Shown: positions 10,116 to 30,514 of the stretch, piece after piece
Position numbering within the stretch: position 1 is the stretch's first letter
How the letters are laid out: every line of letters begins with the position of its first letter
Source of the DNA: a virus
Direction: 5' to 3' (one strand)
Virus record (IMG/VR): IMGVR_UViG_3300013232_000036
Location: 1-32,000 of that record
Length of the DNA: 32,000 nucleotides
Program-made: the position numbers and the translations under genes
Notes under the pieces: generated by a model
What the model saw: only the letters and a program-made list of their open reading frames with translations
Told to the model about the DNA's origin: nothing
Databases searched by the model: none

Positions 10116-11030
10116 CTACGAAGCCTTCTTGCGAGAAGCAACTTCCCTCTCGTGTTCTTGAAGAAGCTTCCTCTTCCGGAGGTACGTGACGAGCAGTGGA
10201 GCCCCTCCGACAGCCAGGTAGGTGGCGAAAGCCGGCACGAGCGGCAAGCTCTTGAAGAGGCCCTTCCCTGTGCCGTGTTGCTCCATGAGGTGAGCCGTGG
10301 CTCTGGCGCTGGCTGCAGCCTCTTCGAGGATCATGGGGGAGGAGAGGATGGCCTGGATGACCCCGGGCTTGTACGACGGGACCTTCGAAGACGCTGATGC
10401 TGCGAGGGTTGGTGCGAGCGTGAGGCCGCTGGCGATGCGGCTGAGCATCTCGACGCCCTGGTACGGCAGGCGAACACCGAGGCCAGCCTGTGCTGCGAGG
10501 AGGTCGTTCTTAGCGTGGCCGAGCTCGTGGGCGATGATGGAGTCCCTCGTGTGGAGGGGGATGTTCACTTCCTTCTCCAGCGGGTTGTAGTACGGCGACC
10601 AGCCGCTCTCCTGGAACGAGCCGGGCGTCAGCACGTTGACCGCCTCCGGAAGACCCATCTTCTTGGCCATCTCGTGGACGTGACTCGTCATCGCCTCTGC
10701 GGTACCTGGCTGACCAGGGCTCTTCATCAGCGCCATCACCGTGACGCCCAAGCCGGCGCTGGTGCCCATGAGGGCCATCTGAGCCTTGGCCTCTCTGGTG
10801 GTGGCCTCGGACTTCTCCTTCTGCCTGGCCTTGAGCGACTGGAGCTTCGCCGCTGCGCTCTTCTTGGCCAGCTTCTCCAGCTCTGAGCTGAAGCCCCGGA
10901 AGAGGGCCACGGACTCCTTCACCTTCTCAGGGAGCTCCTTGATGTTCGGTGTCTCGTGAGCCCACCGCTTCGCCATGCGTGGGTGCTTGGCGAACATGTA
11001 CCGTTGCTGGGCCTTGCTCTTGAGCGGCAT
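10116..11030 (-). CDS. membrane-associated HExxH zinc-metalloprotease-like protein with N-terminal KSKAQQRYM (DUF3008-like) motif
   Basis: Preferred start is ATG 11030-11028, which shares one nucleotide with the upstream TGA (TGATG). HELGH at nt 10515-10529 (IIAHELGHAKND). Hydrophobic segments LGVTVMALM and LVPAFATYLAVGGAPLLVTYL. FSSELEKLA at nt 10866-10892. Confidence 0.6.
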   Translation of the reverse strand: MPLKSKAQQRYMFAKHPRMAKRWAHETPNIKELPEKVKESVALFRGFSSELEKLAKKSAAAKLQSLKARQKEKSEATTREAKAQMALMGTSAGLGVTVMALMKSPGQPGTAEAMTSHVHEMAKKMGLPEAVNVLTPGSFQESGWSPYYNPLEKEVNIPLHTRDSIIAHELGHAKNDLLAAQAGLGVRLPYQGVEMLSRIASGLTLAPTLAASASSKVPSYKPGVIQAILSSPMILEEAAASARATAHLMEQHGTGKGLFKSLPLVPAFATYLAVGGAPLLVTYLRKRKLLQEHEREVASRKKAS

Positions 11031-11554
11031 CACACACCCCTGGAGATGCTCTCGATCTCGCTGAAGAAGCCGAGCAAGGTGACAGCCGAGGTCTTGGAGA
11101 TCGCCGCCTTCCCACGAGCCTTCTTCCACGCATTGAGGTCACGAGCCGTCGTGACGGCACGGTGCTCGTGTTCGGCCATGCCCATGCGCTTCCCCTCCTC
11201 ACGGAGACCGTGGATGTGGGCAGCACCTGGGTGGTCGGACTTGTGGTCGATCTTCTCCCTGGCCTTTGCACCTGGGTAGCCACGAGCGACGGCCTCTTCG
11301 TACGTCACCTTCTCAGGCTTCGCCTTCACGACCGCCTTCGGAGTCGCCGGCTTCACGGTTGGCGTCTTCTTGGGGGCGGCTGGTGCATGGCTTGGGGCCT
11401 GATGAATCGCCGTGTGGATGGCGGAGGTCGACGGTTTTTTCTTGCCGCGTGTCAGCATGTACGCGCCGACACCTGCCGCCGTTGCACCAGCGAGGAGCTT
11501 CTTGGGGTGCCTCTCGAAGAAGTTGAGGCCACTCTCGTTGTCTTCGGAAGCCAT
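11030..11554 (-). CDS. hypothetical membrane-anchored protein with Pro/Ala/Lys-rich linker
   Basis: 174 aa. Transmembrane-like LLAGATAAGVGAYML. Linker APAAPKKTPTVKPATPKAVVKAKPEK. C-terminal FFSEIESIS resembles the recurrent leader motif. Confidence 0.65.
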   Translation of the reverse strand: MASEDNESGLNFFERHPKKLLAGATAAGVGAYMLTRGKKKPSTSAIHTAIHQAPSHAPAAPKKTPTVKPATPKAVVKAKPEKVTYEEAVARGYPGAKAREKIDHKSDHPGAAHIHGLREEGKRMGMAEHEHRAVTTARDLNAWKKARGKAAISKTSAVTLLGFFSEIESISRGV

Positions 11555-12408
11555 CAGTGCTTCTCCTCTTCTTTGACGGTGATGCCGCTGCCGGAGAAGT
11601 TCCCCCCAGGGGCGATCTGCGCGATGGTGGGCGGTGAGAGCTGCGGGTGCTCCATGCGGAAGCGCTCGAACTCCTTGAGCACACCAGACAGGGCCATGTC
11701 GGAGGTGGAGAGGGCGTTGTGGCAGTCGGTGATGGACTTGGAGAGGATGCCGATCGCCTTCACCTTGTCAGCCCTGACACCTGGGATCTGGTTCACCTCT
11801 TCGAGGGCGAAGTAGGCGATCTCCTGGGCCCGGTGGATCATCTTCTTCGAGTCCAGCACCTGGTCGAGGCGGAGGTGGAAGTAGGCGAGCTTGGCGTCTG
11901 CCTGCAGCAGTGCCATGTACCTGTCGTAGAGAGCGCTGCGCTCGTACAGGTAGCGACCCCACTGGTCGAACGTGAGGAGCTTCAGGTTCCAGAAGTAGTG
12001 GCGGTAGGCGGTGACGCCGTCCTCAGAGAGGAACCAGCCGTTCTTCTTGTTGAGCTTGCTCACCACCGTCCGGATGTCGAGCCTGGACATGATGACCTGC
12101 TCGACCTGCATCCTCTTCTGGGGCTCTGCCAGGTAGCTCATGGCTTCCTCGACGCCTGATGTCGGGAAGAACATCTCGTAGACCTGCTGGTCACGCAGGT
12201 ACTGCATCGAGGGCCGGTGCAGCCGGTTGAATGGCTGGAACACCTGCGGAGGGGGCGTGGCCTGGATCTCCTGGCGAAGGAAGCCGAGGTAGTTCTGCGC
12301 CGGCTCCAGGAAGCCACGAACCTCCAGCTCACGGAGGAGCTGGGCGTCTGTCATCGCAGCGTCCCGGATCAACAGGAACCGCAGGAAGTACTCAGCGGGG
12401 TGGCGCAT
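11554..12408 (-). CDS. hypothetical protein
   Basis: 284-aa ORF with balanced composition, coupled to its neighbours (1-nt overlap downstream, 17-nt overlap upstream). I recognise no motif. Confidence 0.7.
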   Translation of the reverse strand: MRHPAEYFLRFLLIRDAAMTDAQLLRELEVRGFLEPAQNYLGFLRQEIQATPPPQVFQPFNRLHRPSMQYLRDQQVYEMFFPTSGVEEAMSYLAEPQKRMQVEQVIMSRLDIRTVVSKLNKKNGWFLSEDGVTAYRHYFWNLKLLTFDQWGRYLYERSALYDRYMALLQADAKLAYFHLRLDQVLDSKKMIHRAQEIAYFALEEVNQIPGVRADKVKAIGILSKSITDCHNALSTSDMALSGVLKEFERFRMEHPQLSPPTIAQIAPGGNFSGSGITVKEEEKH

Positions 12409-29000: not shown

Positions 29001-29933
29001 TCACGGGGCCCCCAGCCAAGACTTCAGGGTCACGATCTGCTCTGCGAGCTGCTTCCTCCTGAGGTTCATGTAGTCACGAGCCACCAGCAGCTTGGCCACC
29101 TGGATGTCGACCTCGTTCTCTTCGAGATCGATCTTGGCGATGGGGTCGTTCTTCACCATCTCCCAGCGGGCCTGCACGGCTGCAGGATCATGCTTGAGGA
29201 GCAGGGTCATGTTCTTCCCACGCCCAGCGTTCATGAGCTCCTGCTTGGGCTTCATCGAGAGGCCCTGCTCGGCACTGTACTTCTCGGTGCAGGTGTCGCA
29301 GACCCCGTCGTGGAAGAGAGCCGAGTCCTCATGACCGCAGTCGTTGCAGTGGTAGTAGGGCTGGCTGACCTCAGGCTGCAGGAAGTCGAGAGGGGCTGGG
29401 ACGAAGGTGACGTCCTCCTCCAGAACCGCAGAGGCCATGTACAGCTTCACCTCTGGCTGGAACTCCTGGATGCGGATGTGCTCCAACATGTCCATCGCGG
29501 CGTAGAGCTGCTCCAGCGACGGTACCTGCATCACCGCCCAGCGTGGAACGTGACCGTTCAACCCCTGAACGATCTTCTCCATGACGTGCCAGAACTCCCA
29601 CGGAGCTCCTGAGACGTGGAGCGTCTTGAGGGTCTGGACCTTCGCCCGGTTCACCTCGGAGATGTTCATCTGGAAGACGCGCTGAACCTCAGCCCAGAGA
29701 GTCTCAGCCTCCCAGCCGTACCACCCCAGGCCGAAGGCCTTGAGGAGGGCGAAGTCGATGACCACCGGGTGCGTGTCCTGGTGGGTGAAGAGGTTCCGCA
29801 GAGTGACGGCGTTGCCGGCGTCCGGGTTCCCCTCTTCGAGGTCCTTCTCGATGGCAGAACCTTCGAGAGATGCCGTCGGCTTCACCGACTCAGCACCCTT
29901 GAGCCTGTCGAAGAGTTCTTGCTCTGGCGTCAT
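29001..29933 (-). CDS. hypothetical protein with CxxC...CxxC zinc-ribbon-like element (310 aa)
   Basis: YYHCNDCGHEDSALFHDGVCDTCTEKY; otherwise no recognisable motif. Confidence 0.7.
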   Translation of the reverse strand: MTPEQELFDRLKGAESVKPTASLEGSAIEKDLEEGNPDAGNAVTLRNLFTHQDTHPVVIDFALLKAFGLGWYGWEAETLWAEVQRVFQMNISEVNRAKVQTLKTLHVSGAPWEFWHVMEKIVQGLNGHVPRWAVMQVPSLEQLYAAMDMLEHIRIQEFQPEVKLYMASAVLEEDVTFVPAPLDFLQPEVSQPYYHCNDCGHEDSALFHDGVCDTCTEKYSAEQGLSMKPKQELMNAGRGKNMTLLLKHDPAAVQARWEMVKNDPIAKIDLEENEVDIQVAKLLVARDYMNLRRKQLAEQIVTLKSWLGAP

Positions 29934-29935
29934 GT

Positions 29936-30514
29936 TCAGACCGTCTTGAAGATCGAGAGGGCCCCCAGGACGAGAGGGCCGGCAGAACCGTGCTTCCCGA
30001 AGGTCGACACCGCCTTGCCGACGAACCCCTTGGGGGTGATGCCCTTGGCGGCCAGGGCGGCCCGCCCTGCCTTCAGGTGCTCCATCGTGAAGGCAGGCTT
30101 CTTCAGCGCCTGCTGAGCCTGCTGGCTGACGTGGGTGCCGAAGTTGGCAGCACGGGTACCGCCTTCAGCGGCGTGGACCGCTCCTGTGGTGGGGTTCCAG
30201 ATGTCGGCTGCGCCCTTCTTGACGGAGGCATGCTTGATCGCCCCGAGGGCGGCACGGAGCTTCCCACCCTTGACCGCACCCTTCGCTGCGTCCCTCATGC
30301 CGGAGTAGATCTTGTGGGCTGAGGAGCCGGCCAGGACTCCGAGACCACCCAGCTCTGCTGCGTGGGTGCCCTTCTCGGACATCTCCTTGCCACGCATCTT
30401 CTGGATGGTCGGAGCGGCCAGGATGCCGAGCCCTGCGATGTCGACCGCTGAGTGGTAGGCGAGCTTCTCCAGCTCATCTCTGAATGCAGTGAGGGTGACG
30501 GCGTGCATGGTCAC
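29936..30514 (-). CDS. leader-motif protein C, Gly/Ala/Lys-rich
   Basis: N-terminus MTMHAVTLTAFRDELEKLAYHS (motif at nt 30458-30484). Hydrophobic Gly-rich AGLGILAAP and LGGLGVLAGSS. Its start overlaps the upstream stop (ATGA). Confidence 0.65.
   Translation of the reverse strand: MTMHAVTLTAFRDELEKLAYHSAVDIAGLGILAAPTIQKMRGKEMSEKGTHAAELGGLGVLAGSSAHKIYSGMRDAAKGAVKGGKLRAALGAIKHASVKKGAADIWNPTTGAVHAAEGGTRAANFGTHVSQQAQQALKKPAFTMEHLKAGRAALAAKGITPKGFVGKAVSTFGKHGSAGPLVLGALSIFKTV

Follow-up and report, generated by a model that had tools for sequence, protein, structure and literature searches.

An N-terminal leader shared by unrelated proteins of large uncultured tailed phages: a candidate address tag for the assembling head

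The first 32,000 nucleotides of IMG/VR record IMGVR_UViG_3300013232_000036 – this whole 32-kb stretch is referred to here as the window – come from an uncultured tailed phage of ~195 kb. The window has a GC content of ~62%, carries nearly all of its genes on the minus strand, and is the head-morphogenesis region of a large tailed phage. Five of its genes, coding for the proteins R_105, O_193, Z_192, and X, and for a metallopeptidase with an HExxH motif (the HExxH protein), share a short peptide with the core F-x-D-E-L-E-K-[I/L]-[A/S], which we refer to as the leader; the remainder of each protein is referred to as its cargo (Table 1).

The five copies had been noticed in an initial annotation and lie where they were reported, all on the minus strand. 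A 17-column profile hidden Markov model (HMM), built from the leaders of relatives only with the window excluded and run on all stop-to-stop open reading frames (ORFs) of the window, finds exactly these five at 10.8-28.9 bits (E 2e-8 to 0.013), and chance can be excluded because the next match reaches only 2.1 bits. The DNA of the five copies varies synonymously (TTC/TTT, GAG/GAA, ATC/ATT/CTG/CTC, and GCC/GCG/GCT), and the leader is therefore kept at the amino acid and not the DNA level. Once the leader is stripped, there is no significant pairwise similarity among the five proteins (best E 0.13). Their earlier description as Gly/Ala/Pro-rich and membrane-like is true in part: the composition is G 8-19%, A 11-19%, and P up to 15%, and clear hydrophobic 19-residue segments are present in only two of the five, O_193 (residues 165-183) and the HExxH protein (residues 264-282).

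The individual cargos differ in character. That of O_193 is Pro/Ala-rich with its hydrophobic segment at the C-terminus, Z_192 has two AGLG(I/V)LA repeats after the leader, and X is Gly-rich, with its gene ending directly before the portal gene. Read from the ATG at 28986, X begins MQAGFISEMEKLS; the GTG at 29004 is the more likely start since it forms a GTGA overlap with the stop codon of the upstream gene. The HExxH protein starts MPLKSKAQQRYM, and its copy is internal: FSSELEKLA occupies residues 47-55 after a KSKAQQRYM module, as originally reported, and is followed by the metallopeptidase part with its HELGH sequence. The KSKAQQRYM module matches phrog_1375 at residues 4-28. In an AlphaFold2 (AF2) model of Z_192 a helix extends over residues 3-38 at a predicted local distance difference test (pLDDT) score of ~70. 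The hydrophobic moment of the leader is no higher than in shuffled sequences, and the idea of an amphipathic helix was dropped on these grounds, the AF2 helix of moderate confidence notwithstanding.

Many relatives of the window are present in IMG/VR, on contigs of about 100-210 kb. The closest is a contig of 195,735 bp (loci L002, L032, and L034), on which the gene order is protease, acidic scaffold-like genes, and an HK97-fold major capsid protein. The nearest isolates are Salmonella phage Arash and Vibrio phages D69, D148, and D181, at ~30% identity in portal and capsid proteins; we found no isolate closer than these, and a megablast search with 21 kb of the window against isolated phages gave no match.

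Comparison with the relatives shows that the short element is real and longer than first noted. The conserved block begins at the initiator Met, with a Met-Phe spacing that is most commonly 8 residues, and the full leader is a 17-residue peptide, M-[H/N]-x-[A/V]-T-x-x-[A/S/G]-F-x-D-E-L-E-K-[I/L]-[A/S]. Conservation drops abruptly after the final Ala/Ser, the next residue not being conserved, and an alignment of the Z_192 family shows a linker prone to indels, 0-17 residues long, starting precisely where the leader ends. The leader is located at residue ~9 in 55/80 database matches to Z_192 and is found in most portal-linked relatives; in all, hundreds of relatives keep it with hardly a letter changed. 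The initial annotation had proposed looking for it in homologues and related phages, and had named lack of conservation there as an argument against it; that argument fails, because the leader is conserved both among the Z_192 matches and across a very wide clade.

The spread of the leader was assessed with a scan of IMG/VR for the back-translated pattern F-x-D-E-L-E-K-I-A, which gave 124 matches in 117 stretches, with loci of 29-71% GC; an ATG located 4-16 codons upstream together with Ala, Ser, or Gly at position -1 accompanies 94 of the 124. Applied to 596 Gb of cellular genomes, the scan yielded this combination in 13/120 among the matches listed, and a nearby upstream stop is also present in 5 of those 13. 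The cellular 9-mers are mostly inside unrelated proteins (e.g. PhoU-like N-termini and ligase-like proteins), and those resembling the phage leader by eye are mainly on contigs of metagenome-assembled genomes. The exact 9-mer persists even where the capsid protein of the contig has only 28-31% identity to its counterpart in the window clade, and judged by this comparison the leader is conserved more strictly than the capsid protein. Distant relatives, with portals ~42-45% identical, have a degenerate version in front of the portal gene (AFRDELRKEAS, AFEDELLKSAS), and one of them (L112) has a canonical leader copy elsewhere in its genome. The leader is absent from Arash and from cyanophage PA-SR01, and a search of the literature for the motif string returned nothing relevant and no description of this motif. 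These comparisons establish the leader as a common N-terminal tag on unrelated cargo, under strong selection at the protein level across a very broad phage clade.

Two other short peptides were encountered along the way. The isolated Pseudanabaena phage PA-SR01 (L162; 21395-25899 and 19602-21398) codes for a helicase homologous to one of the cargos described below and without the DELEKIA leader; several proteins beside its Mu-I-like protease share another start motif (MKHFANF.., MRKSANF..), and the helicase domain is preceded by MEHFANF. This ANF-type start motif may be an analogous tag in another lineage. The second peptide, FFDELEKIAVDKDILSV, is found again and again in very short ORFs of many Nostoc genomes (L170, L174, L175, L179, L187, L190, L200, L234, L237, L243, and L244), where it has the look of a dispersed repeat with no relation to the leader of the phages.

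The pooled loci contain 175 distinct leader ORFs, with 169 N-terminal instances in relatives, and the 159 complete cargos form 112 BLAST clusters. Pfam folds found with the leader include the SNF2 helicase, NUDIX, GNAT plus glyoxalase, Peptidase_C92/NlpC-P60, Zn_peptidase_2, and P-loop kinase, together with Gly-zipper proteins, and the cargo extends up to ~750 aa in the SNF2 helicase. Related Zn-peptidase cargos carry the leader N-terminally, unlike the internal copy of the HExxH protein in the window. Some leader genes adjoin the portal, protease, scaffold-like, and capsid genes, and others are located far off on the same contig. In 12 relatives besides the window the portal gene starts no more than 15 nt from the end of a leader gene, and we considered whether this pre-portal slot is a site of cassette exchange, with the same leader and swapped cargo. 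This was ruled out by the homology of the cargo in 60/78 pairs (window included) at 26-61% identity; the slot is thus occupied by one fast-evolving gene, and since such genes are orthologues, the figure of 112 clusters is too high as a count of unrelated families. Cargo diversity is more safely judged from the Pfam folds than from the cluster count. One recurrent cargo family, present in L055, L088, L107, L112, L114, L149, and L189, has the pattern RKG-R-R-P-[I/M]-R-V..[L/M]-L-R-K-E-K-D-G.

The last five residues of the leader, L-E-K-I-A, fit a shorter motif, [LMIF]-[EQ]-K-[ILVMT]-[AS], which occurs 17 times in the window against 0.8 expected from composition shuffles, these not controlling for structural enrichment. 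In the window it is confined to the scaffold-like fragment, the protease A_543, B_188, D_326, P_745, and the five leader proteins, with zero occurrences in the RNA polymerase (RNAP), terminase, and portal; a related pattern, K-[ILVMT]-A-[GS], adds AA_471. In relatives the motif is enriched 9-30-fold in the same families plus the capsid and scaffold-like proteins, and is absent from 45,913 aa of RNAP (3.0 expected), 16,202 aa of portal, and 7,693 aa of terminase. The sites in AA_471 (K-M-A, a nearly invariant Q-M-K-T-A, and Q-K-I-A) lie at the borders of conserved domains beside linkers of hypervariable length. The capsid protein itself has a leader-like N-terminus (M-x7-L-N-D-L-F-F-E-K-[I/V]-G, then G-K-E-K-I-A-E; ..N-E-A-F-L-E-K-V-S in the distant relatives), and its match to the HK97-fold profile starts only at residue 19. 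In Arash, the head-module proteins gp220-gp225 are rich in phi-x-K-x-A-[S/G/A], with L-V-K-E-A-G at residue 27 of the capsid protein. A DUF5661 module interrupts some protease homologues precisely between a pair of sites (M-Q-K-V-A ... M-E-K-K-S-A), and in P_745 such a module is followed by M-E-K-K-S-G. DUF5661 acts like a small mobile module ending L-x-x-M-E-K-K-[S/A] (P_745; P0002, P0008-P0014, and P0100), one that might be set free as a peptide within the head.

A_543 is the probable head maturation protease, with a protease domain at residues ~35-217 and a helical C-terminal domain. Its motif sites are at residues 24-28, 243-247, 266-270, 278-282, 378-382, and 487-491, and across the protease family they correspond to conserved islands: F-E-K-T-A-G precedes the catalytic domain, M-[A/M]-K-[L/V]-A-S follows it immediately, and further on come x-K-[T/V/A]-A-S, E-K-[L/M]-A, and K-T-A-S near the C-terminus. 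Most of the sites fall in segments of the AF2 model (mean pLDDT 68) that have pLDDT <50 (residues 1-34, 218-288, and 483-492) and lie between folded domains. Across these genomes the terminal motif of the leader is confined to head-assembly proteins, where it is situated in predicted disordered linkers at domain borders. A Foldseek search of BFVD with the A_543 model returned significant matches only for an uncharacterised homologue and phage G gp19 (E 2e-5), the entries annotated as 'prohead core protein serine protease' matching weakly (E 0.04-1.6). In one relative (L043 10001-12190 and upstream; IMGVR_UViG_3300044959_000131) the protease gene is split by three intein-like insertions, giving an ORF of ~1,680 aa with C...HN junctions and LAGLIDADG-like segments, and homologues in the database have Hint and intein Pfam domains (also P0097 and P0106).

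An indirect link to the virion is provided by Arash. The leader-bearing SNF2 helicase of the relatives (e.g. L034 18458-20803, which starts MHVATLTAFEDELEKEA) is 38% identical to Arash gp217, and the start of gp217 falls a few residues past the point at which the leader ends in the relatives. In the Arash virion proteome gp217 is represented by 1148 spectra, not far from the 1333 of the capsid protein and the 1210 of the RNA polymerase beta' subunit (PMC10585845). The proposed connection of the leader with head maturation gains indirect support from the motif in the probable protease and in scaffold-like, capsid, and head-module proteins, and the helicase homologue is indirect evidence of packaging.

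Table 1. Leader copies, motif-bearing proteins, and other features of the window
Feature	Coordinates	Strand	Sequence or evidence
Leader of R_105 (gene 16379-16696)	16646..16696	(-)	MNEITVSAFVDELEKIA; HMM 28.9 bits
Leader of O_193 (gene 12392-12973)	12923..12973	(-)	MHSATWAGFQDELEKIA; HMM 24.0 bits
Leader of Z_192 (gene 29936-30508; alternative GTG start 30514)	30458..30508	(-)	MHAVTLTAFRDELEKLA; HMM 19.2 bits
Leader of X (gene 28339-29004 from GTG, or 28986 from ATG)	28948..29004	(-)	MRISNAMQAGFISEMEKLS; HMM 12.3 bits
Internal leader of the HExxH protein (gene 10116-11030)	10866..10916	(-)	ESVALFRGFSSELEKLA, residues 39-55; HMM 10.8 bits
A_543, 543 aa, probable head maturation protease	657..2288	(-)	phrog_18299 'head maturation protease', E 9.4e-8
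Acidic scaffold-like gene, 5' part, runs off the left end	1..602	(-)	carries DLEKLA, QEKLA, IEKTAG
B_188, small head-module protein	2295..2861	(-)	VEKTA 18-22, MEKMAG 51-56, Gly-zipper-like segment
D_326, scaffold-like protein	3124..4104	(-)	motif sites including LEKVA at 270 and IEKIA at 298
P_745, large motif-bearing protein	12977..15214	(-)	DUF5661 module 217-250 ending MEKKSG; also AFIEKVS, AFIEKTA
AA_471, motif-bearing protein	30511..31926	(-)	KMA ~118, NQMKTA ~166, QKIA ~248
Large terminase	5507-7372		phrog_675, E 9e-59
Portal gene	26297-28342	(-)	head-module context marker; zero motif sites
Baseplate-hub-like protein Q_357	15225-16298		
RNA polymerase, 2089 aa, beta + beta' domains in one chain	17271-23540	(-)	
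tRNA-like gene, anticodon undetermined	9010-9080	(-)	ARAGORN; gap between plus-strand NUDIX gene and K_158
HNH/endonuclease VII-like gene	16693-17265	(-)	phrog_3322, E 1.6e-20; between RNAP gene and R_105
Plus-strand island	7660-8972	(+)	RNase HII (PF01351, E 4e-29) + NUDIX hydrolase (E 3e-23)

Several neighboring genes deserve comment. The scaffold-like gene at the left end starts at ~602; it corresponds to the first of the scaffold-like genes of the closest relative, where more genes of this kind and then the capsid gene come after it. The 2089-aa RNAP ORF has Rpb2_3 and Rpb2_6 at residues 349-928 and Rpb1_1, 2, 3, and 5 at residues 1165-1988, including NADFDGD, and its gene is placed between the portal and baseplate-hub-like genes. 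Its Arash homologues are two separate proteins, gp206 and gp216, which rank with the most abundant virion proteins, and the window RNAP may thus be a virion-packaged single-chain enzyme of the multisubunit type. The HNH/endonuclease VII-like gene is probably that of a homing endonuclease. The plus-strand RNase HII/NUDIX island sits between the terminase gene and the HExxH cluster; its NUDIX enzyme has no leader, and some NUDIX enzymes of the relatives are leader-tagged. Adjacent head-module genes abut with overlapping start and stop codons, as GTGA at Y/X (29001-29004) and AA/Z (30511-30514) and with a single shared base at the M_174/HExxH junction (11028-11032), which suggests translational coupling.

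The initial annotation had likened the leader to the capsid-targeting sequences (CTS) of T4 internal proteins. In T4, the internal proteins and Alt have N-terminal propeptides of 10-19 residues that target the prohead core and are removed by gp21, with targeting determinants in the N-terminal part, processing determinants at the end, and highly diverse mature proteins (PMC9026906, PMC3012670). The likeness holds in that a short N-terminal peptide, of 17 residues here, is common to diverse and variable cargo, as in T4 IPI-III and Alt. It does not extend to homology: the T4 peptides end in Glu at the gp21 L/I-x-E site, whereas the window leader ends E-K-[I/L]-[A/S], there is no sequence relation between the two, and the window protease has no detectable similarity to gp21. 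The window-type leader is also far more widely and strictly conserved, its cargo includes enzymes as large as the ~750-aa SNF2 helicase, and processing is an observation in T4, whereas for the window leader we infer packaging and cleavage from sequence. By analogy, the leader is best read as one that would work like the T4 CTS but outside that family, with its own cleavage consensus and protease.

We therefore place at roughly 55% the probability that the 17-residue leader is a T4-CTS-like address tag for entry into the assembling head, removed by the head maturation protease. The leader would direct unrelated proteins into the prohead, its N-terminal half (M..T..[A/S]-F-x-D-E) conferring affinity for the scaffold, the core, or the capsid interior, and the short motif would be the cleavage site of A_543. 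The cut would probably come after the Ala/Ser of the motif, since this is the very point at which conservation ends and indels set in. The freed cargo would stay in the head and then be ejected into the host, and the ejected set would comprise Gly-zipper or membrane-active proteins and the Zn peptidase, and in relatives also helicase, NUDIX, GNAT, amidase, and kinase proteins.

Other phages with extensive head processing offer a partial parallel. In phiKZ-like giant phages (SPN3US gp53/gp54 and the phiKZ inner-body proteins) the prohead protease cuts several head or ejection proteins at a single short motif, paralogues may share identical N-terminal residues, and some ejection proteins, as in SPN3US, have transmembrane segments (PMC5694885). 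Their motif, however, is A/S/G-x-E and their propeptides are mostly longer than 100 residues, in contrast to [LMIF]-[EQ]-K-x-[AS] and a 17-residue tag on unrelated proteins. No conserved small-x-Glu of the phiKZ type (S/A/G-x-E) is present at the end of the leader. In staphylococcal phage 80alpha a short N-terminal sequence is common to the capsid protein and one other head protein, and both lose it by a cut at the same position; the capsid protein of the window clade has an N-terminus resembling the leader, although 80alpha has only two such proteins, a different sequence, and no diverse cargo set.

Three familiar classes of leader were considered and ruled out. A double-glycine leader is at odds with the sequence, since E-L-x-x-I is present but the next two positions are not Gly-Gly, and with a cargo of up to ~750 aa; moreover, there is no peptidase-ABC (C39) transporter among the window genes. 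The only match to the Nif11 leader model was sub-threshold (13.8 bits; cut-off 32.3) and fell on an internal part of P_745; the leader proteins gave none. A Sec/Tat signal does not agree with the acidic character of the leader (D-E-L-E-K) or with its lack of an N-terminal hydrophobic 19-residue segment.

The main rival explanation, which we regard as unlikely, is that the leader and the motif are docking peptides for the interior of the HK97-fold shell or for the scaffold and are not cleaved, with repeated motifs acting as multivalent binding sites. There is precedent for this in encapsulins, whose short conserved cargo-loading peptides, usually C-terminal and uncleaved, direct unrelated enzymes into an HK97-fold shell. 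In the window clade diverse cargo carries a shared peptide and the capsid protein has the HK97 fold; the leader is N-terminal and has another consensus, and the phages that use it are tailed and encode a portal, a terminase, and a probable maturation protease. Docking without cleavage fits most of the data: the evidence for capsid targeting serves it equally well, short linear binding motifs likewise occupy disordered linkers, and the residue following the motif is not conserved. What argues for processing is that the sites bracket the catalytic domain of A_543 and the inserted DUF5661 module, as is typical of processing, that conservation ends abruptly with indels right after the Ala, and that a maturation protease is encoded beside the scaffold-like genes.

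A number of observations weigh against targeting to the head with removal by A_543. The assignment of A_543 consists of one PHROG match plus gene order: the protein has no match in Pfam, also at a lax threshold, or in NCBIfam, none in a sequence search of the PDB, and no significant one when its model is compared with the PDB by Foldseek, and hhalign of the A_543 family with T4 gp21 (S77) finds no similarity (probability 0.4%). A helical word such as L-E-K-I-A could be structurally enriched in helical scaffolds, some leader genes are far from the head module, and the leader is not measurably amphipathic when its hydrophobic moment is set against shuffles. The leader is not the sole route into the head, because Arash packages a homologous helicase without it, and the Arash virion proteome, at 116 proteins, may include contaminants (PMC10585845). 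No cultured member of the clade was found.

Targeting to some other place – the tail or baseplate lumen, the virion RNAP, a replication or assembly compartment, or the cell membrane – seems to us distinctly unlikely. R_105 and O_193 do flank the baseplate-hub-like Q_357, several cargos have hydrophobic or Gly-zipper segments, and leader genes are scattered over the genome, all of which such a destination would accommodate. However, the terminal motif is common to the protease, scaffold-like, and capsid proteins and not to the hub-like protein, RNAP, portal, or TerL (the large terminase), the leader is acidic with no hydrophobic core and so is not of the Sec/Tat type, and soluble enzymes carry it.

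It is improbable that cleavage of the leader is the work of the HExxH metallopeptidase, itself leader-bearing, or of a host protease instead of A_543. The conservation of a leader-tagged Zn peptidase in several relatives and the weak assignment of A_543 as a serine protease are consistent with this; on the other side, motif sites flank the catalytic domain of A_543 itself, as expected for autoprocessing, and the HExxH protein, with its membrane-like segments, looks like cargo. The notion that the leader has no common function, and is the last remnant of one diverged paralogue family or a nucleotide-level translation or recombination signal, is largely refuted, since – fast-evolving orthologues rather than swapped cassettes at some slots notwithstanding – the Pfam folds of the cargo are unrelated, synonymous sites vary while the peptide is kept across 29-71% GC, and conservation of the leader far exceeds that of the capsid protein.

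If the leader is indeed an address tag cleaved in the head, the implications extend beyond the window. We would give even odds to the broader proposition that leader and motif form an undescribed, clade-wide code for loading and processing capsid cargo in a very large group of uncultured phages of ~100-210 kb and 29-71% GC, tagging a changing arsenal of injected proteins (helicase, Zn peptidase, NUDIX, GNAT, cell-wall amidase, kinase, and membrane-active Gly-zipper proteins). It would be a second capsid-targeting and processing code, independent of that of T4 and with another protease specificity, would help in comparing how cargo is recruited to HK97-fold capsids, and could be used, like the T4 CTS, to package chosen proteins. 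The motif further yields predictions of where the protease and the scaffold-like and capsid proteins of the lineage, and of Arash-like phages, are cut during maturation. For a lineage with almost no annotated genes, a 17-residue peptide would list from sequence alone the proteins carried into the host with the phage DNA – the class that usually holds early takeover and anti-defence functions – and the injected proteome of any member of the clade would be readable directly from its genome.

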